A stretch of DNA of 64,000 bases from Patescibacteria group bacterium (GTDB lineage Bacteria; Patescibacteriota; JABMPQ01; JAQVVF01). The stretch lies in contig JBAZSC010000001.1 of assembly GCA_041662665.1 (NCBI GenBank), positions 65,511 to 129,510 on the forward strand, given 5' to 3'. Below are positions 10,006-38,975 of the stretch, in pieces. The notes below the pieces were generated by a model. The model did no database searches. It saw only the letters and a program-made list of their open reading frames with translations, and was not told where the DNA came from. Both the position numbers and the translations under genes were made by a program. How positions within the stretch are numbered: position 1 is the stretch's first letter; every line of letters starts with the position of its first letter.

Positions 10006-11532
10006 CTACGACTCTTTTGGCCTGTATTGTAGTGCTTCCGCAATATGTTTAGCTTCAATGTTTTCGCAATTTTCAAGATCAGCAATAGTTCGCGAAACCT
10101 TCAAAATTCGGTTGTAGGCACGTGCAGAAAGATGCAAGGTATTAACAGCGTTATGCAATAATTCTTGCGACACAGAATCAATTTTGCAGAAATTACGCAT
10201 CTCTGAATGGCCCATTTCTGAATTAGAAGTTATCGGCATATTTTTAAATCGTTTCACTTGAATTTCACGAGCCTTTTGTACTCGTTTTTGAACATCAGCT
10301 GATTTTTCCGCTAATTGCTCATCAACTAAATTTTCATATTTTACTTTTGGCACATCTATATGAAGATCAATTCGATCCATCAATGGACCAGAAATCCTTT
10401 TTTGATAGCGAGACACTTCGACAGGCGTGCAAGAACATTCTTTATCATTGCTCATATAATATCCGCAAGGACAAGGATTCATTGATGCAACTAATGTGAA
10501 TTTAGCAGGAAAAGTTAATGTTTGTTGAGCACGTGAAATTTGGATTATGTTATCTTCAAGCGGCTGTCTTAAATTATCCAATATTTTTCGATCAAATTCA
10601 GGTAATTCATCAAGAAATAATACTCCGCGATGTGCCAAACTTATCTCGCCAGGTCTAGGATAGGCACCTCCGCCAACTAAGCTCACACCTGAAGCAGTAT
10701 GATGCGGACTTCGAAAAGGCCTTATTTTAACAAGTGAATCATTATCACTCAAATGACCAGCAATAGAATAGATTTTTGTGACTTCAAGAGCTTCAGTAAC
10801 TGTCATTTTTGGTAAAATAGTTGGCAATGTTCTAGCTAATAATGTTTTTCCAGATCCTGGAGGTCCAGACATTAGCATATTATGCGATCCTGATGCTGCA
10901 ATTTCAAGAGCTCTTTTCGCATGTTCTTGACCTTTGATATAAGCCATATCAAACTTAGAAATAATATTTTCATCGGAAAGATTAGTTAAACCTTTCGATC
11001 TAGTTGGAATAATCACACTTCTGCCATTCAAATGCAAAATTAATTGAGTTAAAGACTTAACAGGATAAATTTCAATATCCGGAATTAAGCTTGCTTCAGC
11101 CAAATCGCAAAAAGGCAAATACAATTGCTTTAAGCCCTTTTCTTTTACCATCGAAGCAACAGAAATAATGCCATTAACATGTCTTAATTCTCCTTCAAGA
11201 GATAATTCACCAATAAAAATCTTGTCCTTTTCATCAAATTCAATCTCGCCGTTAGCCTTGAGGATTGCAAGAGCAATTGCCAAATCAAAAGCCGGCCCTT
11301 CTTTCTTAAGGTCAGCCGGCGCCATATTTACAGTTACACGTTTAGGCGGAAACAAAAATCCGCTATTTTTTATTGCTGATCGAACTCTTGCTCTTGATTC
11401 TTGGACAGTTTTATCAGGTAATCCAACAACATCAAAAGCTGGCAAAACACTATTTTGAAAAATATCAGCTTCAACTTGGATTAAAAAACTATCCAAGCCA
11501 ATTACTGATGCGCTTATGACCCTCCCAGGCAT
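10006..11532 (-). CDS. comM: YifB/ComM family Mg-chelatase-like AAA+ ATPase
   Basis: N-terminal Lon-like ChlI subdomain, Walker A GPPGSGKTLLA, conserved VASMNPCPCGY and C-terminal Mg-chelatase region. Confidence 0.85.
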   Translation of the reverse strand: MPGRVISASVIGLDSFLIQVEADIFQNSVLPAFDVVGLPDKTVQESRARVRSAIKNSGFLFPPKRVTVNMAPADLKKEGPAFDLAIALAILKANGEIEFDEKDKIFIGELSLEGELRHVNGIISVASMVKEKGLKQLYLPFCDLAEASLIPDIEIYPVKSLTQLILHLNGRSVIIPTRSKGLTNLSDENIISKFDMAYIKGQEHAKRALEIAASGSHNMLMSGPPGSGKTLLARTLPTILPKMTVTEALEVTKIYSIAGHLSDNDSLVKIRPFRSPHHTASGVSLVGGGAYPRPGEISLAHRGVLFLDELPEFDRKILDNLRQPLEDNIIQISRAQQTLTFPAKFTLVASMNPCPCGYYMSNDKECSCTPVEVSRYQKRISGPLMDRIDLHIDVPKVKYENLVDEQLAEKSADVQKRVQKAREIQVKRFKNMPITSNSEMGHSEMRNFCKIDSVSQELLHNAVNTLHLSARAYNRILKVSRTIADLENCENIEAKHIAEALQYRPKES

Positions 11533-12065: not shown

Positions 12066-12521
12066 TTATTTTCTAGCTTTCTTAAATTCCAGCACAATCA
12101 TAATAATAATTCCGCTAATTATGTATAAATCAGCCAAGTTTAACACGCTTAAATTAAATAGGTGAATATAATCAACCACAAAACCTCTAAAAACTCTATC
12201 AATTAAATTTGAAAAAGCTCCAGCAATGACTAGCATCAATGAAAATAAAACAATAAAATTCATCTTTTTTAATTCTTGCTGAAATTTTTGCAATAAAAAA
12301 TATAATATTAAGAAAATTACGATATACATAATCACTTTTGGCATCGGCAAGCCAAAAGCAACGCCAAGATTCTGAAAAGAAGCAATTCCAAAATTATTAT
12401 TCAAAACAAAAAAACCATCTTGAGGAAGATAGTTTACAACAATAAATTTAAATAATTGGTCAATAAAAATAAGAATTAAACCAATTAAAATCAAATATAT
12501 AATTTTTGTTTTGTTTTTCAT
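12066..12521 (-). CDS. lspA: lipoprotein signal peptidase (signal peptidase II)
   Basis: Four TM helices; conserved NLGVAFG, FSNLIDR and VVDYIHL motifs of LspA. Confidence 0.8.
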   Translation of the reverse strand: MKNKTKIIYLILIGLILIFIDQLFKFIVVNYLPQDGFFVLNNNFGIASFQNLGVAFGLPMPKVIMYIVIFLILYFLLQKFQQELKKMNFIVLFSLMLVIAGAFSNLIDRVFRGFVVDYIHLFNLSVLNLADLYIISGIIIMIVLEFKKARK

Positions 12522-12522
12522 G

Positions 12523-12652
12523 AATATAATACAAATATACGAATTTATGCAAATTTACGAATATGCAAATCGTCGATAAACAAAATTCGCATATTCGTAA
12601 CATTTGCAAATAATTTTACTGTAACGAAAAATTATTCGTAAATTCGTATTAT
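12523..12652. repeat. palindromic MITE-like element (TACGAAT family), copy A; the arm next to lspA forms its promoter/5'UTR
   Basis: Two ~50-bp arms in inverted orientation (aatataatacaaatatacgaatttatgcaaatttacgaatatgcaaat / atttgcaaat...attcgtaaattcgtattat); related copies at 53194..53300, 57449..57502 and 58415..58530. Confidence 0.5.
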
Positions 12653-13005
12653 TTTTTTGCGCACTCTATGCAATAAGTCGCAGTTGGATTTGCTTCTAAT
12701 CTTGCTTTATCGATCATTTTATTGCAATTCTCGCATTTACCAAAAGTGCCTTTTTTAATCCTATCTAAAGCATTATCTACGTCTTTTAATTTTTGTTCTA
12801 AGTTTCCTTCAACAGACAAATTGCTATCATAAAGAGAGACTTCAGCAGCTTCAGCTGTATTATCAAAGATTGGATCGCCAAAATTTTTGAATTTTGGATC
12901 ATAATCATCTTTGGCTTTTGGATCTTTTGTCGCAACATCGCCCAAGCTCTTTTGAAGTTGTTGTTTTTCTTTTTCTAATTTGTCTTTTATATTGTTGTCT
13001 TGCAT
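12649..13005 (-). CDS. DksA/TraR-family C4 zinc-finger protein
   Basis: C-terminal CENCNKMIDKARLEANPTATYCIECAKK (CxxC-17-CxxC) preceded by a coiled-coil region. Confidence 0.75.
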   Translation of the reverse strand: MQDNNIKDKLEKEKQQLQKSLGDVATKDPKAKDDYDPKFKNFGDPIFDNTAEAAEVSLYDSNLSVEGNLEQKLKDVDNALDRIKKGTFGKCENCNKMIDKARLEANPTATYCIECAKK

Positions 13006-13280
13006 AAATTTTATTTTTAAATGTCTAGTAACTTAATTCTAGCATAAAATTAAATAAAAATCTAGGCGAAATTGCTCAATTGTTCATTTGTTAAATTGTT
13101 AAATCGTTGATTAAAGTTCCTATCCCACACCAAATGCAACTAGAAAAAATAGTTATATCACAGATTAAATGTATTTTAGAAAGAAAATGTTTTTCGTTAC
13201 TTTAACGGCATTTGGTGCGGGATTGTAAATTAAGCATGTTTTTTCTACGCCTGCGGGCTTGAAAAAAATGCTTTCTTTAC

Positions 13281-13310
13281 AAAAAAAACGGGCGCCAGAG
13301 GGCGCCCGTT
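13281..13310 (-). terminator. rho-independent terminator oriented for a minus-strand transcript (cgggcgcc-agag-ggcgcccg; T-run on the minus strand)
   Basis: Perfect 8-bp GC stem; the minus strand reads ...cgggcgccctctggcgcccgtttttttt; a second AT hairpin lies at 13231..13268. Confidence 0.65.
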
Positions 13311-13700
13311 AAAAATATTTAATGGCGCTCTGGCACCCGTGGGAGCTATATCTTACCGCCTTTCTCCTACTTGTGAATGATCACGTAGAATAAGGGCAGG
13401 ATTTAGCGATATAACCCATACAAGGTGCACAAGAAGCCTGATAGTTCTTCAATGTGTCTGTTCTCTCACCGTCCTTCTGGCTTTTGATCTATTTTGGATC
13501 TTGGCCTAAATTTTTGTTTTTGGTTTTTTGACTCCACTTGTTCTGGAGTATAAAGTGCGATTTTGCGGGTGTATCAGCACCCTTAACGGACAGAGAGAGC
13601 AGAATATCGAGTTACTAGTAACTAGTCACTAGTAACTGGCATTCTGCTCGCCCTGTACGGTCGCAGAAAAATAAATTTTTATAAGATATCTCGTTTTCTA
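13311..13700 (-). ncRNA. candidate structured non-coding RNA of unknown class in an ORF-free 1.2 kb region
   Basis: No ORF of 60 aa or more between 13006 and 14211; the region ends at a strong minus-oriented terminator; GC-richer than surrounding intergenic DNA, with multiple local stems (e.g. gagcagaat/attctgctc, gggtg..caccc). Confidence 0.2.
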
Positions 13701-14039
13701 CTTTTTTGTGGCCCTATGCAGATCAAATGGCTAGGCCATTGCAGATAAGCACGGGTAGTTGAATAGGGAAATGTCATAATTCATCTCACGAAATATATTT
13801 TTCCACTCAGGATAGCAAAAGAAAAATGTTCTTTTGGCGAGTCTTAAAATCATTTTAGCTTTTTTCTATGTTTATAAGTATTTCTACTCTGCAACGCGTC
13901 AAAGAGCAGACTCTACATCAGTAACTACAAAAAATCGCAGAAAGCCTAATTTGATTCTGACTAGCTCAAATTGTGAAAAAACGTTTTTGTTTTTGTTTCT
14001 ACATATATTATAGCATAAAATAACGTTTCATTCAAACCT

Positions 14040-14170
14040 TATTATAAATAAAAATGAAAGCTTAACAAAGCCAATCCACAAGTTATCAACAGCGAACACA
14101 AAAGTTATACACAGGCAATGTTTATAACTTTTATAGTTTTAAACAGCATATCTACAACTTATCCACAGGT
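14040..14170. promoter_or_regulatory. cluster of DnaA-box-like 9-mers (TTATCAACA, TTATACACA, TTATCCACA, plus AATCCACA) with a flanking AT-rich tract; candidate oriC or DnaA-regulated region
   Basis: Three TTATNCACA-class boxes in the same orientation within 85 bp, adjacent to ttattataaataaaaatg. Confidence 0.45.
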
Positions 14171-14211
14171 TAGGAACAATTTAAGTAATAAAAAAATCCA
14201 GATAACTGGAT

Positions 14212-14625
14212 TTACAAAGTACTGTACTTGAAATCTTTACGGACTAATGTCAGTTCAACAACAGTTTCTTCTTCATTGATGAATTCTTGGGAGTTTAACA
14301 AAGTCAGAAAACGAAGAAGAGATGCAAAATCACTGAATTCAAAGAATTGGTAGTCAAGGCTACGTTCATCGGAAAGATCAATCACAGCATGATGAGTATC
14401 TTTGTTGAAACGGATCCTGACGATTTTACAAAGCACATCGGCAAGTTGCTGTACTGCCAGCAATAGCCTCAAATCGCATACAGAAACAACAGCTCCAAGA
14501 AGAGTTTCTTCTCCATTTTCTTCCGTATTGATGATCAAAGTTGATCTTTCGCGACCAAGGTTCAAGAAAACTTGTTCTGGCGAACCATAAAAAGCCTTGC
14601 ATTCCAATGTTGCCACGCGTTTCAT
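14212..14625 (-). CDS. hypothetical protein
   Basis: AAGGAGGAG SD then ATG (MKRVATLE...); 138 aa. Confidence 0.5.
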   Translation of the reverse strand: MKRVATLECKAFYGSPEQVFLNLGRERSTLIINTEENGEETLLGAVVSVCDLRLLLAVQQLADVLCKIVRIRFNKDTHHAVIDLSDERSLDYQFFEFSDFASLLRFLTLLNSQEFINEEETVVELTLVRKDFKYSTL

Positions 14626-14691
14626 TTCTTTCTCCTCCTTTTTCTCGCCCACCCGAAGTATTTAATAACGTATACTAAAATCTAAAAAATG

Positions 14692-17391
14692 TCAATGTTT
14701 TTCCAAAAATTTCTCAACTTCTGTACCAATTTCCTTAATTTCATGGTGAGAAACACCTACTTTAGGCAAAGCTTGTAAAAACTTCATGCCATAGTCAGTA
14801 TTTTCAAGTCTCAAATCAAGCATCACAACTACGCCTTTGTCAGTTTTTGACCTTATTAATCTGCCAAATCCTTGTTTAAAAGTCAAAATAGCGCGTGGAA
14901 TAGAATATTGCATAAACTTATTTTGATATTGACTTGATCTTGCCTCAAAAATTGGCTCGCTTGGCACTTCAAATGGAATTTTAGTAATTACCAGGCATGA
15001 CAAATTTTCACCAGGAATATCCACTCCTTCCCAAAAAGAAGAAGTGCCTAGCAATATTGTATTTTTATCACTTTTAAAAGCATTTAATAATTTCATTTTT
15101 CCGCCAGTCACGCCTTGAGCCAAAACTTTTACTCCTTCTTGTCTCAATTCAAATGCCAATTTTTTATAAACACTTCTGATTGCCGAATAAGAAGTAAAAA
15201 GAACCAAAGTCTTTCCTTTTAATTTTTTTCCAATATCAATCAACACTTCGCAAGTTTTATTATTAAAATCATTATGATTTGGCAACGGAAAATCAGTTGG
15301 TAAAATAACAGTTGCTTGTTTTTCAAAATCATAATGAGAGGGGATTTGAATTTTATCAAAAGTTTCATCTAATCCAAGCTTTTTTGCAAAATAATCAAAA
15401 CCTTGATCAGTTGTTAGCGTTGCTGATGCCAAGATGACTGTTTCTTTCTTATCAAACAAATTATCTTTCAAATAACCATCAATATTTAAAGGTGCTGAAA
15501 ACAAATTAATCTTTTCTTCTCTGAAAGTCAGCCAATAGATGCCATTTTCTAATGGGTTAACAATAATTTCCTTCAACAAATCCTTAGTTTCGCGATTCTC
15601 CATAATTAAGCCATCAAGATCATAAATAATTTCTTGCCAATTTTTGTCATCTGTTGAATAATTTACCTTTAAATGATCCAAAAGTTCAGTTAGACTTTTT
15701 TCAAGCACTTCAAATTGCAAAACTAAATTGTTTATTGAGCCAGTTACTTTCCACCATTCACCATAATTTCGAACTCTGTCAGTCAGCAATAATTTTAGTC
15801 TGCCATTATAAAAATCTTGAAAAGCATTATTCTTAATAAAAATATTCAAAATGCCAAAAAATAGATCAGTTTGATTGGTTAATTTTTCCAAATTATGAAA
15901 AATCTTGTCTGTTACCTCAGATTTTTCTTTTTTACCAATTTTATTCAAAATTGATTTAATATTTTTCAAAAATTCATCAATTTTTTCATTTGACACAAAT
16001 TTCGTTAGTTGCGAGGTCATACTATCTTCCAGATGATGCGCTTCATCAATAATCAAATGTTTATAATCCAGATAATTCTCATCATCAGAACTTACAGCTA
16101 ATAAAGCATGATTAATAATCACAATATCAGCAGATTTTGCTTCTTCTTTTGCTTTATAATAAAAACATTTCTTTTGATTTGGGCATTTTCTTTTCAAACA
16201 AAAATTAGAACTGCAAACCAAGCTCTTTTTGACCCATTCTTCCTGAAAGCTTAATGACAATTCATTCAAAATGCCATCAGGAGTTTCTGGCATCCATAAT
16301 AATATTTTAACTAAAACAGTTAATTCGTCTTCGCTTAAGTTTTTTTTACTTTTTAATTCAAGGAATCGACGCAAGCACAAATAATTTTCTCTGCCAACTA
16401 ATTTTTTAGCTTTGAAATTAAAATTTACTGATTCTCGAACAATTGGGATATCCTTAAACAATAATTGATCTTGCAAATTCAGCGTGTATGTCGAAATTAC
16501 TACTTTTTCATTGTTTGCTTTGGCAAAATAAACAGCTGGTAATAAATAGGCGAGTGATTTGCCAACGCCAGGACCTGCTTCACAAACCAAATGTTTATCG
16601 CCCAAAAAAGTTTCACTCACTTTTTTCATCATTTCGATTTGATTCGGCCGAAATTCAAAATTCTTAAACACTTTGCTCAATTTTCCTTGATCAGCAAACA
16701 TTTTTTCAATCTGCCTCAAATCAAATTCTGGAATAACGTCGTTTGTCGTTTGCGTAGTTATTTTTAATTTTTGATTAATTATTTTAGATTTTAGATTTTT
16801 GACTTTTTTATGATTTATGAACAATTCACTTAATGACCATTCATGTCTAGTCAGCAATTTCCGAATATCTTCCAATATACGAATATCCAGTTCATCAATT
16901 TTAGCGATCAAAAACGAAAACAGTTCGCGTGTCGCCAAAACATCGCCCATCGCTCGATGGCTCTGTACATTTTTCATTTTTAAAAAAGAAACTAATGATT
17001 CCAAGCTATGCGAGCCTAACGATGGCAACAGAATAGTCGCTAATTTCCAAGTATCATAAGATTTATTTGGCAAATCAACACCTTTTGCTTTTAAATATCC
17101 CAAATCAAATGAAATATTATGGCCAATGATCGGCAAATCGCCAATAAATTTAATTAAATTATCTTGAATTTGATGAAGCAATGGCGCATCCTTTACCATT
17201 TCATCAGTTATTCCAGTTACAGCTTTAATTATTTTTGGAATTTCTGTTTTTGGATTAACAAAAGTCTGAAATTCATCAATTACTTTATCTCCTTCAAATT
17301 TAATCGCTGCAATTTCAATAATCTCGCCAAGACTTGGCAAAAGATCTGTCACTTCAATATCTAGACAGACGTATATTTTTTGATTTTTCAT
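14692..17391 (-). CDS. dinG: DinG-family ATP-dependent DNA helicase with N-terminal DnaQ-like 3'-5' exonuclease domain
   Basis: N-terminal YVCLDIEVTDL...HNISFDLGYL (DEDDh exonuclease); Walker A GPGVGKSLAYLLPA; DEAH box IIDEAHHLED; C-terminal helicase motifs. Confidence 0.8.
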   Translation of the reverse strand: MKNQKIYVCLDIEVTDLLPSLGEIIEIAAIKFEGDKVIDEFQTFVNPKTEIPKIIKAVTGITDEMVKDAPLLHQIQDNLIKFIGDLPIIGHNISFDLGYLKAKGVDLPNKSYDTWKLATILLPSLGSHSLESLVSFLKMKNVQSHRAMGDVLATRELFSFLIAKIDELDIRILEDIRKLLTRHEWSLSELFINHKKVKNLKSKIINQKLKITTQTTNDVIPEFDLRQIEKMFADQGKLSKVFKNFEFRPNQIEMMKKVSETFLGDKHLVCEAGPGVGKSLAYLLPAVYFAKANNEKVVISTYTLNLQDQLLFKDIPIVRESVNFNFKAKKLVGRENYLCLRRFLELKSKKNLSEDELTVLVKILLWMPETPDGILNELSLSFQEEWVKKSLVCSSNFCLKRKCPNQKKCFYYKAKEEAKSADIVIINHALLAVSSDDENYLDYKHLIIDEAHHLEDSMTSQLTKFVSNEKIDEFLKNIKSILNKIGKKEKSEVTDKIFHNLEKLTNQTDLFFGILNIFIKNNAFQDFYNGRLKLLLTDRVRNYGEWWKVTGSINNLVLQFEVLEKSLTELLDHLKVNYSTDDKNWQEIIYDLDGLIMENRETKDLLKEIIVNPLENGIYWLTFREEKINLFSAPLNIDGYLKDNLFDKKETVILASATLTTDQGFDYFAKKLGLDETFDKIQIPSHYDFEKQATVILPTDFPLPNHNDFNNKTCEVLIDIGKKLKGKTLVLFTSYSAIRSVYKKLAFELRQEGVKVLAQGVTGGKMKLLNAFKSDKNTILLGTSSFWEGVDIPGENLSCLVITKIPFEVPSEPIFEARSSQYQNKFMQYSIPRAILTFKQGFGRLIRSKTDKGVVVMLDLRLENTDYGMKFLQALPKVGVSHHEIKEIGTEVEKFLEKH

Positions 17392-25075: not shown

Positions 25076-25462
25076 TCAATGAGCGTAACCTTCAAGAAGA
25101 TTTGTTTCAGTCATCACGCCATCAGTAATTACGACCTTTTCGATCGTATAACCATCATTCCAAACAAAAATTGCATCCAAGCTTCCCTTGTTTTTGCAGA
25201 ACATGTCAAGCAAAGGAGTATAATATCTTGTTGCGCCAATACCAATCACAAAAGTTTCCAACTGCAATGAGCCATCTTCCGAATTGCGGAAACTGATAGC
25301 TGACGTAAAATCAGTTTTCATGCGAAAACGTCCTCGAACTACACCAAGTCCGTATGGACCAAACACGCGAGCTTGTCGTTCGAGTTCTGGGAACATTTGG
25401 ATTTTCAAAGCAAAAGATTTGATGTGTACTACCGAAAGGACGTCACCATGCATAGGTTTCAT
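25076..25462 (-). CDS. hypothetical protein
   Basis: AAGGAGG SD then ATG (MKPMHGD...). Confidence 0.45.
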   Translation of the reverse strand: MKPMHGDVLSVVHIKSFALKIQMFPELERQARVFGPYGLGVVRGRFRMKTDFTSAISFRNSEDGSLQLETFVIGIGATRYYTPLLDMFCKNKGSLDAIFVWNDGYTIEKVVITDGVMTETNLLEGYAH

Positions 25463-25839
25463 TCTGCCTCCTTGCCTCTCGTTGTTGAGAGGAACAATAA
25501 AATATTACATAATTAACATAAAATGTCAATCCAAATAGTCTTGCCAAAATTAAATTCATTTGGTATAATTAAAATATAAAATATAGTAAAAACTATATTA
25601 GTTTAGTTTACAATAATTAATACGCTATTTTGGCCAAAGCTTTTGCTAGTGCTAAAATAGTCGCGAATTTCGTTTAATTTAAACTTCGTTCAGCGTAATC
25701 CATCAGGATAATCCGCATGTTATCCGCACGAATCCGTGCAAACATGGATTAAATAATTAGACGTGGTTTACGCAAAACATTTTTAAAGATAGCGAAAGGT
25801 CATAAAATTATGTTGAGCAAGAAAAAAAAGACTTCTTTA

Positions 25840-26169
25840 ATGAAGAAGTATGCAACTCACAAAGGTGACACAGGTTCACCAGAAGTACAAATTGCAATTT
25901 TAAGCGCAGAGATCGAAGAATTAACAGAACATTTAAAGACTCATCGCAAAGATAATTCTTCAAGAAGAGGTTTATTAGGCAAAGTTCACCAAAGAAGAAA
26001 ATTGATGACTTATTTATCTAAAGAAGATGAAAAACGTTATCAAACAATCATTAAGAAGTTAAAACTTAAAAAAATCAAAGAAGAAACAGAAGCAGAAAAG
26101 AAAAGAAGTGAAGAAATCAGCAAAATCGCCGAAAATCAAGATGCAGAAATTGATGAAGATATGGAATAA
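25840..26169 (+). CDS. rpsO: 30S ribosomal protein S15 with ~30-aa K/E-rich C-terminal extension
   Basis: [51 protein letters not shown] matches the S15 signature; the ORF-track start at 25810 is an alternative. Confidence 0.8.
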
Positions 26170-26180
26170 AGCACCAAAAG

Positions 26181-26272
26181 TTTCTGCGTTTTCTGCGTTC
26201 ATTTCTGCGTTATTCTGCGTTAAAGTCTTGAATGCAGAAATACGCAGAATCTGACGCAGAAGACGCAGAATT
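26181..26272. repeat. palindromic array of four TTCTGCGTT octamers followed by four ACGCAGAA octamers (large imperfect hairpin after rpsO)
   Basis: ttctgcgttttctgcgttcatttctgcgttattctgcgtt ... gcagaaatacgcagaatctgacgcagaagacgcagaa; a half copy lies at 61755..61795. Confidence 0.5.
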
Positions 26273-34250: not shown

Positions 34251-34383
34251 AAACATTTTAAACAGGCTGAAAAAAAGCCTGTTTTTGTTTTGCTCAAAAA
34301 ATTGCTATACTGAAGTTAGGAAACAGAAAATAGTTAACTACGGCGTAACTGTTTTCTGTTTCCTGTTTTCTAAAATTAACACT

Positions 34384-35313
34384 ATGTCCAGCTTCGACAC
34401 ACTCATCACCGAATTTCTCGAATACTGCGAAATAGAAAAAAATAGATCACAATTAACAATCAGAAATTACGATCATTATCTTCGCGTTTTTTTAGCTTGG
34501 TCAAAAGTCACCAATATTTCTCAAGTCAGTCCAGATTTAATCAGAAAATATCGTCTCTATCTTAATCGTTATCGCGATCTCAATGGCAAAGCTTTGAAAT
34601 CAGTAACTCAAAGTTATTATATTATTGCGATGCGTTCATTTTTGAAATACCTAGCCAAACGAGATATTAAAACAATGGCAGCTGAAAAATTAGAGCTACC
34701 AAAAATTCCAGAAAGAACAATTGAATTTTTAGAGCCAAATGAATTAGAAAAACTTCTTAGCCAGCCAAACATTCATAATCTAAATGGCTTAAGAGATCGC
34801 ACAATTTTAGAAACCTTATTTTCTACAGGCTTGCGTGTCAGCGAATTAGTGAGTTTAAATAGAGAAAGTATTAGTTTGCTTCATGATGAATTCACAGTTC
34901 GTGGTAAAGGCGACAAACCAAGAGTTGTTTTTTTATCAACTGAAGCAAAATCATGGTTATCAAGTTATTTAAAACAACGCAAAGATAATTTAAAACCATT
35001 ATTTATCAATCATCCAAAGCAAGCCAGCAAAAATAGCGAAAAAGAAATTGCTGATCTTAATTCCGGACGATTGACACCGAGAAGTATTCAAAGAATTGTT
35101 AAAAAATATGCTTTACTAGCAGGCATAACCAAAAATGTAACTCCGCATACTCTTAGGCACAGCTTCGCGACTGATTTATTACGTAATGACGCAGATATCC
35201 GTTCAGTCCAAGCCATGCTTGGTCATTCCAATATTACAACCACTCAAGTTTATACTCACGTTACAGACAAAGGCTTGCGCGAAATTCACAAAAAATGCCA
35301 TCATCGAAAATAA
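34384..35313 (+). CDS. tyrosine site-specific recombinase, XerC/XerD family
   Basis: N-terminal SAM-like core-binding region LITEFLEYCEIEKNRSQLTIRNYDHYLRVF; catalytic region HTLRHSFATDLL...LGHSNITTTQVYTHV with R-H-R-Y residues. Confidence 0.8.
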   Translation: MSSFDTLITEFLEYCEIEKNRSQLTIRNYDHYLRVFLAWSKVTNISQVSPDLIRKYRLYLNRYRDLNGKALKSVTQSYYIIAMRSFLKYLAKRDIKTMAAEKLELPKIPERTIEFLEPNELEKLLSQPNIHNLNGLRDRTILETLFSTGLRVSELVSLNRESISLLHDEFTVRGKGDKPRVVFLSTEAKSWLSSYLKQRKDNLKPLFINHPKQASKNSEKEIADLNSGRLTPRSIQRIVKKYALLAGITKNVTPHTLRHSFATDLLRNDADIRSVQAMLGHSNITTTQVYTHVTDKGLREIHKKCHHRK

Positions 35314-36426: not shown

Positions 36427-36499
36427 GGGCGCATAGCTCAGTTGGTAGAGCGTCTGCCTCTTAAGCAGAATGTCAGAGGTTCGATCCCTCTTGCGCCCA
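36427..36499 (+). tRNA. tRNA-Lys (anticodon CTT)
   Basis: Acceptor gggcgca/tgcgccc, D-arm gctcagttggtagagc, anticodon loop cTCTTaa, T-arm agagg-ttcgatc-cctct. Confidence 0.85.
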
Positions 36500-36514
36500 T
36501 ATTTTTTTAAAACA

Positions 36515-37093
36515 ATGCAAATTGAATACGAAGCAACATTTTTAAAGGTCAATAAAGATTCAGTTCGCAAGCAATTAAAAAAATCAGGAGCAAAATTAAT
36601 TAGGCCAGAATTTTTACAAAAGAGAATTGTTTTTAACTTTCCAAAAGGAAATGAAATAAAAGGTGGATGGGTCCGAGTCCGAGATGAAGGTAATAAAACA
36701 ACAATGAGCATTAAAATTGTTGATGGCTCAAAAATTGAAGACCAGAAAGAAGTATGTTTGCAAATTGATAATTTTAAAAATGCTGAACAATTTTTAAAAA
36801 CATTAGGTTGTAAACAAAAGTCATTTCAAGAATCAACAAGAGAATTATGGATGTTAGATAATGTCGAAATTACAATTGATGAATGGCCATTTCTAGAACC
36901 ATTTGTTGAGATTGAAGGAGAGTCAGAAAAAGTAGTTAAACAAGTATCAAAGAAGTTAGGATTTAATTATAAAAAAGCATTTTTTGGAGCAGTAGGAACA
37001 TTATATAGTCAAAAATATAAGTTGCCAGAAGACACAGTAAATAATGAAACTCCAAAGATTATTTTCAAAATGAACAATCCATTTATAAAATAA
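36515..37093 (+). CDS. CYTH-domain protein (class IV adenylyl cyclase / triphosphatase-like)
   Basis: Starts MQIEYEATFLKV (the ExExK signature of CYTH); the ORF-track start at 36470 overlaps tRNA-Lys. Confidence 0.65.
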   Translation: MQIEYEATFLKVNKDSVRKQLKKSGAKLIRPEFLQKRIVFNFPKGNEIKGGWVRVRDEGNKTTMSIKIVDGSKIEDQKEVCLQIDNFKNAEQFLKTLGCKQKSFQESTRELWMLDNVEITIDEWPFLEPFVEIEGESEKVVKQVSKKLGFNYKKAFFGAVGTLYSQKYKLPEDTVNNETPKIIFKMNNPFIK

Positions 37094-37730: not shown

Positions 37731-38327
37731 TTTCGTTGCTTGTTAATTGTTAAATGTTAACTGTTAATTGTCCGCAACTTGACAACTTAATATTGCATTT
37801 ATAAACTGCTAGTCAATTTTATAAGAGTATATGGCGGATGCCTTGGCTAATTAAACCTAAGAAGGACGTTGCAGCCTGCGATAAGCCTCGGGGAGGTGGC
37901 AAGCAACCTTTGATCCGGGGACGTCCGAATGAGGAAACTCATCCTGCATTTATGTAGGATATCTCTTACTTCGGTAAGAGAGGGGTACCCAGTGAACTGA
38001 AACATCTTAGTAACTGGAGGAATATAAAACAATAGTGATTCCCCAAGTAGCGGCGAGCGAACGGGGAACAGTCTAAACCGTATCTTAATTATTAGTAACT
38101 TAACTTTATTGTTGGTTATTAATAATTAATTTATCGGGGTTTCGGAAACAACATTTACGTAATTCTAAGCGGTTAGTTGAAAGCTTCTGGAAAGAACTAC
38201 CATAGTGGGTAATAGTCCCGTAAACGAAAACTGCTTCAGATACGGTTGTTTTCCAAAGTAGCACGAGCTAAGTGAAATCTCGTGTGAATTCGGGAGAACT
38301 ACTCTTCCAAGACTAAATATTTAATTA

Positions 38328-38369
<42 letters not shown>

Positions 38370-38943
38370 TCCCGATGAGGGAGATGAAATAGAACCTGAA
38401 ACCATATACTTACAAGGAGTAGGAGCCCCGCTTCGGCGGGGTGACTGCGTGCTTTTTGCAGAACGAGCCAACGAGTTAATGTATGTTGCAAGGCTAAGTT
38501 ATTATTTAACGAAGCCGTAGGGAAACCAAGTTTTAACGAGCGTTCAGTAACATATATTAGACCCGAAACCAGTTGAGCTACCCATGGGCAGGATGAATTT
38601 GAACGAAAGTTCAAAGGAGGTCCGAACACACAAGCCGTGCAACACTTGGTGATGACCTGTGGGTAGAGGCGAAAAACCTAACGAAGCTGGAAATAGCTGG
38701 TTTTCCTCGAAATAGCTTTAGGGCTAGCCTTATTATTACTTGTTTGGAGGTAGAGCACTGGATGGAATGAGATGGTTTATACCTACTCGTTCCAATCAAA
38801 CTCCGAATGCCAGACAATCACATAATAGGAGTCAGACTGTGGGGGCTAAGCTTCATAGTCAAAAGGGGAACAGCCCAGATTACCATCTAAGGTCCCTAAA
38901 TATATGCTAAGTGGTAAAGGATGTGCGATGACTTAAACAGTTA

Positions 38944-38975
<32 letters not shown>

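Follow-up and report, generated by a model that had tools for sequence, protein, structure and literature searches.

The stretch of 64,000 nucleotides (nt) analysed here (the window; contig JBAZSC010000001.1 of assembly GCA_041662665.1, positions 65,511 to 129,510) belongs to a Saccharibacteria-like genome of the Patescibacteria; the public sequences most closely related to its DinG protein are from metagenome-assembled genomes labelled Candidatus Saccharibacteria and Patescibacteria group. Between a 146-aa open reading frame (ORF) and a dksA-like gene lies about one kilobase free of recognisable genes, and this region very probably holds a real, conserved gene for a structured noncoding RNA (ncRNA) that belongs to no described family and is read from the minus strand, 14001 to 13281. 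In minus-strand gene order, the locus comprises the following:

17391..14692, minus strand: DinG-like exonuclease-helicase
14652..14212, minus strand: 146-aa ORF
between the 146-aa ORF and the dksA-like gene, minus strand: ORF-free region with the RNA gene
13005..12649, minus strand: DksA/TraR zinc-finger gene (dksA-like)
12521..12066, minus strand: lspA
11532..10006, minus strand: ComM-like ATPase

A preliminary description of this DNA had taken 13006-14039 to be devoid of ORFs of 60 aa or more, and the longest one present, on the plus strand at 13834..14013, indeed reaches 59 aa. The GC-richer core that it had reported is likewise apparent, GC content being 0.40-0.45 across 13200-13700 vs. 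0.21-0.34 in the flanks.

Predicted transcription unit

Judged from its sequence signals, the RNA gene is an independent minus-strand transcription unit and a single-copy gene. The elements that delimit it are:

14190..14213, minus strand: intrinsic terminator of the upstream dinG/146-aa-ORF unit, found by a terminator scan and conserved in the related loci L001 and L002
14159-14167: DnaA-box-like 9-mer TTATCCACA
14105-14113: DnaA-box-like 9-mer TTATACACA
14083-14091: DnaA-box-like 9-mer TTATCAACA
14007..14035, minus strand: predicted sigma-70-type promoter TTGAAT-17-TGcTATAAT with extended -10 (10/12 plus the TG motif)
13281..14001, minus strand: predicted ncRNA transcript of ~720 nt, its start inferred from the -10 box and its end given by the U tract
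13281..13338, minus strand: terminal GC-rich hairpin (13290-13338) followed by a G and U8 tract (13281-13289), intrinsic terminator
13066..13280: window-specific spacer of 215 nt, outside the RNA, between its terminator and the dksA-like promoter
13036-13044: dksA-like promoter TGCTAGAAT, a conserved extended -10

Since the terminator at 14213..14190 closes the dinG/146-aa-ORF unit, the RNA gene is separated from the unit upstream. Its putative promoter is kept in all homologs of the window clade (L001, L002/L004, L005/L006, L009, L030, and L032), to which positions 14212..13281 of the window were aligned, and the analogous promoter of the more distant L035, TTGATA-17-TGnTATAAT, scores 11/12. 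The strong minus-strand terminator recognised in the preliminary description was confirmed as a 10-bp hairpin with 8 GC pairs, AACGGGCGCC-CTCT-GGCGCCCGTT, running into T8 (13310..13287, minus strand); it forms the inner hairpin of the terminal structure at 13290-13338, which is invariant in the window clade and recurs with the same architecture, but with its GC pairs swapped, in L031, L033, and L035. The predicted transcript ends at the 13281-13310 terminator as had been proposed, but it is longer than the 13311..13700 core to which attention had been drawn, as the RNA would start near 14001 and conserved regulatory DNA extends to 14167.

The terminator also bears on whether the region could be a cis-regulatory leader (riboswitch, T-box or attenuator) for the downstream dksA-like gene and lspA. 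In the window clade it stands upstream of the dksA-like gene on the same strand, and its GC-rich segments allow two alternative hairpins, one short and one long, as those of such a leader might. However, both alternative hairpins abut the U tract, so that neither leaves room for an antiterminator, and a separate predicted promoter, a conserved extended -10, precedes the dksA-like gene. Moreover, the next gene (ogt) is convergent in L033, L035, and L038, leaving nothing downstream to control, and a length of 410-720 nt far exceeds that of known leaders, with no match to an Rfam cis-regulatory family. We therefore consider a leader extremely improbable.

The spacer that follows the terminator is absent in L001, where an 8-nt gap takes its place, and partial in L002 (118 nt). 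Here the preliminary description had placed a perfect-stem hairpin of 100 nt at 13124-13225; an inverted repeat does exist, but its arms (13124-13137 and 13208-13221) measure only 14 nt, with one mismatch on the plus strand that becomes a G-U pair on the minus strand and a loop of ~70 nt. The repeat occurs once in the window and in none of the relatives; the hairpin at 13124-13221 is a non-conserved feature of the spacer, outside the RNA. The loop of the inverted repeat is AT-rich.

The three DnaA-box-like 9-mers share one orientation, lie ~85-160 nt upstream of the predicted start, and are all invariant in the window clade. Within the 64 kb, 12 sites match the DnaA box with <=1 mismatch from TTATCCACA, and three of these cluster here within 85 nt. 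Equivalent boxes precede the RNA in more distant relatives, namely TGTGGAAAA and TTACCCACA in L035, L038, and L033, and TGTGTATAA in L031. From these sequences, DnaA would be expected to bind at 14083-14167.

Boxes upstream in every lineage are also what a DNA-level replication-control locus would show, be it an oriC-proximal DnaA-box cluster or a datA/DARS-like site that titrates or reactivates DnaA, with the RNA structure being secondary or cis-modulating; furthermore, a GC-skew minimum and a gene-strand switch lie ~11.5 kb away, at ~25.5-25.8 kb. Yet there are just one to three boxes, placed outside the most conserved part, while the strongest constraint falls in the transcribed 3' half. 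No AT-rich unwinding element or origin-type box array was seen at the locus, and the skew switches elsewhere. The compensatory pair changes, G-U pairs and strand-asymmetric fold presented below indicate selection at the RNA level, and we regard a replication-control site as quite improbable.

Conservation without coding

In the window-clade alignment, identity to the window was 84-100% over the 3' half (13499-13281) and 62-89% over the 5' half (14001-13800). Conservation over the predicted transcript was put at 80-100%. For comparison, third codon positions of the adjacent dksA-like gene and lspA were 53-68% identical and the whole genes 71-84%; the RNA is thus conserved above both the flanking protein genes and this neutral proxy. 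The lengths of insertions and deletions in the region are not divisible by three, and neither strand has an ORF that the window-clade homologs share at the same place or in the same frame; the ATG at 13853, for instance, opens 40, 17, 51, and 4 codons in different homologs.

These observations bear directly on whether the region could be a pseudogene in decay or could code for small proteins, one or several, that escaped annotation. Small ORFs do exist, such as one of 40 aa at 13853..13731, and a gene caller placed a 57-aa ORF in the L031 homolog, where lgt and a 539-aa gene intervene between the RNA and dksA. The preliminary description had named a decayed pseudogene with detectable protein homology as a finding that would overturn the ncRNA assignment. 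No protein homology emerged when the region was read in six frames and searched by tblastn with Lgt and the 539-aa protein of L031, no ORF keeps its position or frame, and conservation exceeds that of real genes. Small proteins or a pseudogene were therefore rejected, and we accord them next to no probability. The 57-aa ORF called in L031 (8408-8581) falls within the RNA homolog and is probably spurious. In the same locus, the gene caller split lgt (10365-11186) into pieces of 105 and 151 aa, pointing to a frameshift or a fault in the assembly.

A wider family at a fixed syntenic site

Identities among DinG homologs run through 100, 90, 82, and 71% and then drop to <=46%. In relatives whose DinG is only 38-46% identical, an RNA form of ~410 nt occupies the corresponding position, dinG-[RNA]-(ogt)-dksA-lspA. 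The gene order of these distant loci is rpsO-(NYN)-pnp-DUF3352-dinG-[gap]-(ogt, opposite strand)-dksA-lspA-x-comM, with L031 departing from it by the presence of lgt and the 539-aa gene mentioned above. The gap, 0.4-0.6 kb long and un- or dubiously annotated, directly follows dinG in L031, L033/L034, L035/L036, and L038/L039, and each time it contains DnaA-box-like sites, a strong predicted promoter, ~410 nt, and a long GC hairpin with a U tract. The ~410-nt forms carry the motifs of the window 3' half in the same order. A search with PNPase from the distant loci gave, as its closest named match, a Candidatus Saccharibacteria protein at 56% identity.

Two covariance models were used to examine this relationship. 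R1 was built from the window clade only (168 positions, 37 pairs) and run unfiltered over 50.5 kb, where it ranked the syntenic sites first (L031, E = 3.9e-4; L033, E = 1.5e-3; L038, E = 0.019), L035 being recovered only partially (E = 0.31). R2, built from five lineages, recovered L035 and L036, on which it had not been trained, at E = 4e-14 and found a single copy in the window; neither the DinG loci lacking synteny (L037 and L040) nor the chance loci gave a match. The DinG relatives P0091 and P0029 (L037 and L040) were accordingly rejected as family loci, being neither syntenic nor in possession of the RNA. An exact 18-mer, CCAGAAGGACGGTGAGAG, gave 18 matches in a metagenome collection, all of them due to chance (GC 0.40-0.78; identity confined to 18-21 nt), and two conserved probes had no match in a viral contig collection.

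The small ORFs in the slot that separates dinG from the DnaA boxes have no Pfam domains and differ among the relatives: 146 aa in the window (14212-14652), 116, 135, and 74 aa in L002 (8736-9861), 101, 168, and 164 aa in L009 (2386-3764), and 157 aa in L033 (7797-8270), with no ORF in L032, L031, L035, and L038. From its contents, this slot looks like a variable insertion hot spot adjoining the RNA gene.

RNA structure and covariation

From 5' to 3', the RNA is predicted to comprise the following elements:

13690..14001, minus strand: 5' expansion domain of ~300 nt, window clade only (the relatives L031, L033, and L035 have ~45-60 nt)
13590..13656, minus strand: variable-length hairpin V (cagagagagcagaat...attctgctcgccctg stem), with a conserved, covarying base and a tip that varies in length and sequence
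13588..13597, minus strand: S2 strand CUCUC-UG-UCC, forming a long-range helix with 13465-13474
13567..13582, minus strand: hairpin S3, GGGUG-CUGAUA-CACCC, with a covarying stem (GGGGU/ACCCC in L031)
13507..13531, minus strand: A-rich unpaired linker UCAAAAAACCAAAAACAAAAAUUUA, a second copy of the motif being near the 5' end (13983-13999)
13479..13506, minus strand: hairpin a, GGC-CAA-GAUC-CAAAAUA-GAUC-AAAA-GCC, with 7/7 pairs kept and two-sided changes in 6/7
13457..13478, minus strand: S6 AGAAGGACGGUGAGAGAACAGA, the most conserved stretch (family consensus GAAGRRCGGURRG)
13428..13456, minus strand: hairpin c, with two-sided changes in 8/9 stem pairs and the loop UAUCAG
13343..13417, minus strand: irregular long hairpin e, with internal loops GCUAAAUC/UAA and CUUA/GAAA and two-sided changes in 16/21 pairs

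The minus-strand fold has a predicted energy of -218.5 kcal/mol (z = -7.1 vs. shuffles), compared to z = -4.0 for the plus strand, and many G-U pairs of the model would be A-C mismatches on the opposite strand. In the five-lineage alignment, 95.7% of pair cells were canonical, as compared to 70.6+-2.7% when partners were shuffled and 36-44% when partners were slid by 1-3 columns. Changes on both sides of the pair, i.e., compensatory evidence, were found for 30 of the 37 modelled pairs. Pairing support for the 5' expansion is modest, with 91.1% paired vs. 87.3% in shuffles and 11 two-sided pairs vs. 4.0+-1.7.

Two long-range contacts were checked outside the 37-pair model. Firstly, each lineage has a 6-nt S3 loop that matches the hairpin-c loop exactly as its reverse complement, and three versions of this loop pair occur:

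window clade: S3 CUGAUA (13572-13577) with hairpin c UAUCAG (13438-13443)
L033/L035/L038: S3 CCGAUA with hairpin c UAUCGG
L031: S3 CCUAGA with hairpin c UCUAGG

Secondly, the S2 strand, located just 5' of S3, pairs with S6 in two short helices that flank a 2x2 internal loop, and this interaction covaries as well:

window clade: CUCUC-UG-UCC with GGA-CG-GUGAG
L031: CUUAC-UG-UUC with GAA-CG-GUAGG
L033/L035/L038: CUUAC-UR-CUC with GAG-CG-GUAAG

S3 lies within the S2:S6 helix, yet its loop kisses that of hairpin c outside this helix; the core is therefore a pseudoknot. S6 itself does not vary within the window clade and can be recognised in every lineage, its part at 13465-13474 being the partner of S2. 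A 5' pyrimidine strand at 13809-13823 can also pair with S6, both strands being invariant in the clade, but this pairing competes with the covarying S2:S6 helix. The A-rich tracts of the AAACAAAAAC type are conserved across all lineages and unpaired in all predicted folds.

Covariation with orthologous regions had been put forward in the preliminary description as a means of checking the ncRNA assignment, and the comparison supports it, with compensatory changes in most modelled pairs and covariation in both the kissing loop and S2:S6. The local stem cagagagagcagaat/attctgctcgccctg that it had picked out by eye is real, corresponding to hairpin V, whose base covaries in the relatives. In contrast, the helix CCGUACAGGG/CCUUGUAUGG from the single-sequence minimum-free-energy fold is unsupported in L001 and L009, which support hairpin V instead, and was discarded.

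Tests against known RNA families

At the Rfam 15 gathering score, no family was assigned to the window, L031, L033, or L035, and searches at E<=10 of the RNA with its surroundings (0.45-1.4 kb) in the window, L035, and L033 returned nothing meaningful. There was thus no Rfam match to RNase P, tmRNA, signal recognition particle (SRP) RNA, 6S, OLE, GOLLD, ROOL, HEARO, raiA, or group II introns, which answers the suggestion in the preliminary description to compare the region with models of RNase P, tmRNA, SRP, 6S, and group II introns. Sub-threshold matches (rli38 and miRNA hairpins) vary among the homologs and were dismissed as chance matches to hairpins or the terminator. The preliminary description had counted the lack of an Rfam hit, if joined by a lack of transcription, against an RNA; the former proved uninformative, as here it marks an undescribed family rather than no RNA.

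A tmRNA was ruled out. ARAGORN detected none in the window or in 7 loci, the motifs GGTTCRA and CCACCA were absent from six divergent members in a motif scan, and the region has no tRNA-like domain, T-loop, CCA end or tag reading frame.

An extremely diverged RNase P RNA (rnpB) of this lineage requires closer consideration, as a core of ~410 nt, a single copy, housekeeping-level conservation and a pseudoknotted fold would all fit, and the rest of the 64-kb window, itself only ~10% of the genome, yielded no RNase P RNA. The universal RNase P signatures CR-I, GGAAAGUC, and CR-V, ACAGAA...GGCUUA, flank the P4 helix. In the scan of six divergent members, GGAAAGUC (GGAAAGTC), AAAGUC, and GGCUUA were absent, and ACAGAA occurred only in L009, at a non-conserved spot. 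Neither the P1 end pairing nor P4 is present in the supported structure, which consists of serial hairpins, a long-range helix and a loop-loop kiss, and the only predicted end-to-end pairing is that of an A-tract with the terminator U-tract. The RNase-P-like strings AATAAGGGCAGG and GGTGCACAAGAAGC noted earlier are indeed present on the plus strand, but the functional strand is the minus strand, and they carry no weight. On the minus strand, GCGGUAAG, GGCCAAAAUAG, and GGGUG...CACCC resemble motifs of the RNase P S-domain or P15, but in the wrong order and the wrong structural context. Three divergent members gave no RF00010 or RF00011 match at E<=10. Diverged RNase P RNAs of the Candidate Phyla Radiation (CPR) do escape default thresholds, and 10 of 35 circular CPR genomes needed a lowered threshold for RF00010, but the RF00010 model still recovered these forms (Lui et al., PMC8172020). 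Altogether, we judge it very improbable that the RNA is an RNase P RNA.

Other features of the window

The 23S rRNA match at 37811-42183 spans 4373 nt vs. a 2925-nt model, and the ORFs at 39860-40321 and 41209-41685 within it both carry LAGLIDADG homing-endonuclease domains; from this, the 23S rRNA gene probably contains two intron-type insertions. No 16S rRNA gene adjoins it, and the tRNA genes just upstream are those for Arg(tct) and Lys(ctt) rather than for Ile and Ala; unlinked rRNA genes have been reported in the CPR (PMC8172020). Before the 23S gene comes an ORF encoding a CYTH domain (36470-37093), which follows or overlaps tRNA-Lys, and a tyrosine recombinase of the phage-integrase family (34285-35313) is encoded just upstream of these two tRNA genes.

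The cumulative GC skew has its minimum at ~25460-25810, and gene orientation switches from minus to plus between the ORF at 25076-25462 (minus) and rpsO at 25810 (plus). As rpsO-pnp-DUF3352-dinG are co-oriented in L033 and L035, the window carries an inversion with a breakpoint at ~25460-25810. Replication might originate or terminate at this position, which lies ~11.5 kb away from the RNA gene. The rpsO-pnp intergenic region (26110-26267) contains several copies of UCUGCGUU and its complement ACGCAGAA, which form hairpins and gave a chance match with R1 (E = 0.009); the region may be a structured pnp leader.

Proposed role and significance

The preliminary description had left the region as a candidate ncRNA of no assigned class. 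That candidate is supported by the promoter and terminator, the lack of a conserved ORF, the conservation, the covariation and the lack of an Rfam family, and we hold with high confidence that it represents a real ncRNA gene of a family not previously described. No account of such an RNA turned up in a search of the literature, and a paper on TM7x states that validated small RNAs are lacking for that organism.

Several points weigh against this reading. An nhmmer search with the window-clade profile left the distant forms undetected (E ~0.2-2), and their homology consequently rests on synteny, motif order and the covariance models, of which R1 gave E values of only ~1e-3 on these forms in addition to its chance match. 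The comparison comprises only ~10 distinct sequences from 4-5 lineages, and the covariation alignment was fitted to the model structure, which inflates pairing. The promoter, the start site and the stability of the RNA are predictions from consensus matches, the function proposed below is drawn by analogy, and, as CPR RNase P RNAs are known to escape standard thresholds (PMC8172020), a highly aberrant housekeeping RNA keeps a small residual probability.

As to what the RNA does, it might act in trans through its three-dimensional shape, either as the scaffold of a stable housekeeping ribonucleoprotein (RNP) or as an RNA that sequesters a protein (a decoy). The A-rich single strands could then serve as a protein-binding platform, and occupancy by DnaA might tune the promoter and thereby couple transcription to replication or growth state. 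We put forward this combination of trans action, A-rich platform and DnaA tuning tentatively, by analogy to known RNAs, and would not be surprised to see it revised, a new ribozyme or a role linked to replication being among the alternatives. A broader proposal, which we stop just short of calling probable, is that this is a lineage-wide housekeeping RNA of Saccharibacteria-like Patescibacteria, pseudoknotted and 400-720 nt long, that would constitute a new large ribozyme or RNP core with expression wired to DnaA.

Large, intricately folded bacterial RNAs are rarely discovered, and RNase P, OLE, GOLLD, ROOL, and raiA each led to new biology or structural principles. Patescibacteria (CPR) make up a big share of bacterial diversity and have tiny, densely coded genomes, the ncRNA of which is poorly charted. 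That 0.4-0.7 kb are kept at a fixed locus, under constraint above that of the neighbouring proteins, suggests an important function. Were the broader proposal true, some of the smallest genomes known among bacteria, products of strong reduction, would have kept a function carried out by RNA. Through the conserved DnaA boxes there is a concrete link to regulation that can be tested, further members of the family can be sought with the covariance model and the anatomy presented here, and the genetic tools under development for Saccharibacteria should make the RNA experimentally tractable.

Comparison with known RNAs

Among the universal or widespread RNAs, tmRNA resembles this RNA in size range, in being single copy and in having variable genes inserted alongside, and differs from it by hallmarks that were not found here, i.e., the tRNA-like domain, T-loop, CCA end and tag reading frame. 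6S RNA and Ms1 are likewise encoded by stand-alone genes with a strong promoter and housekeeping-like conservation, and there is a further parallel in that the RNA described here adjoins a gene of the DksA/TraR family, members of which act at the secondary channel of RNA polymerase. Its fold, however, is not a long rod with a central bubble, it matches no Rfam 6S-type model, and it is two to four times longer than 6S RNA. With the RNase P RNAs (types A and B and the diverged CPR forms) it has in common a single-copy core of ~400 nt, a pseudoknotted architecture, a few similar short strings and strong conservation within genomes of reduced size, whereas CR-I, CR-V, P4, P1, and any match to RF00010 or RF00011 at E<=10 are lacking.

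A further likeness is to the large, "ornate" orphan ncRNAs of bacteria, namely OLE, GOLLD, ROOL, HEARO, and raiA (ModT). Unlike these, the present RNA has no covariance-model match even at E<=10, is present once in the chromosome of Saccharibacteria-like Patescibacteria, at one constant syntenic site, is preceded by DnaA-box-like sites, and was not found with two probes in a viral collection. It shares with them a free-standing, lineage-restricted gene with its own promoter and terminator, here producing 400-720 nt, together with many covarying helices, conserved unpaired nucleotides, loop-loop contacts, and a genomic context that is uninformative on function.

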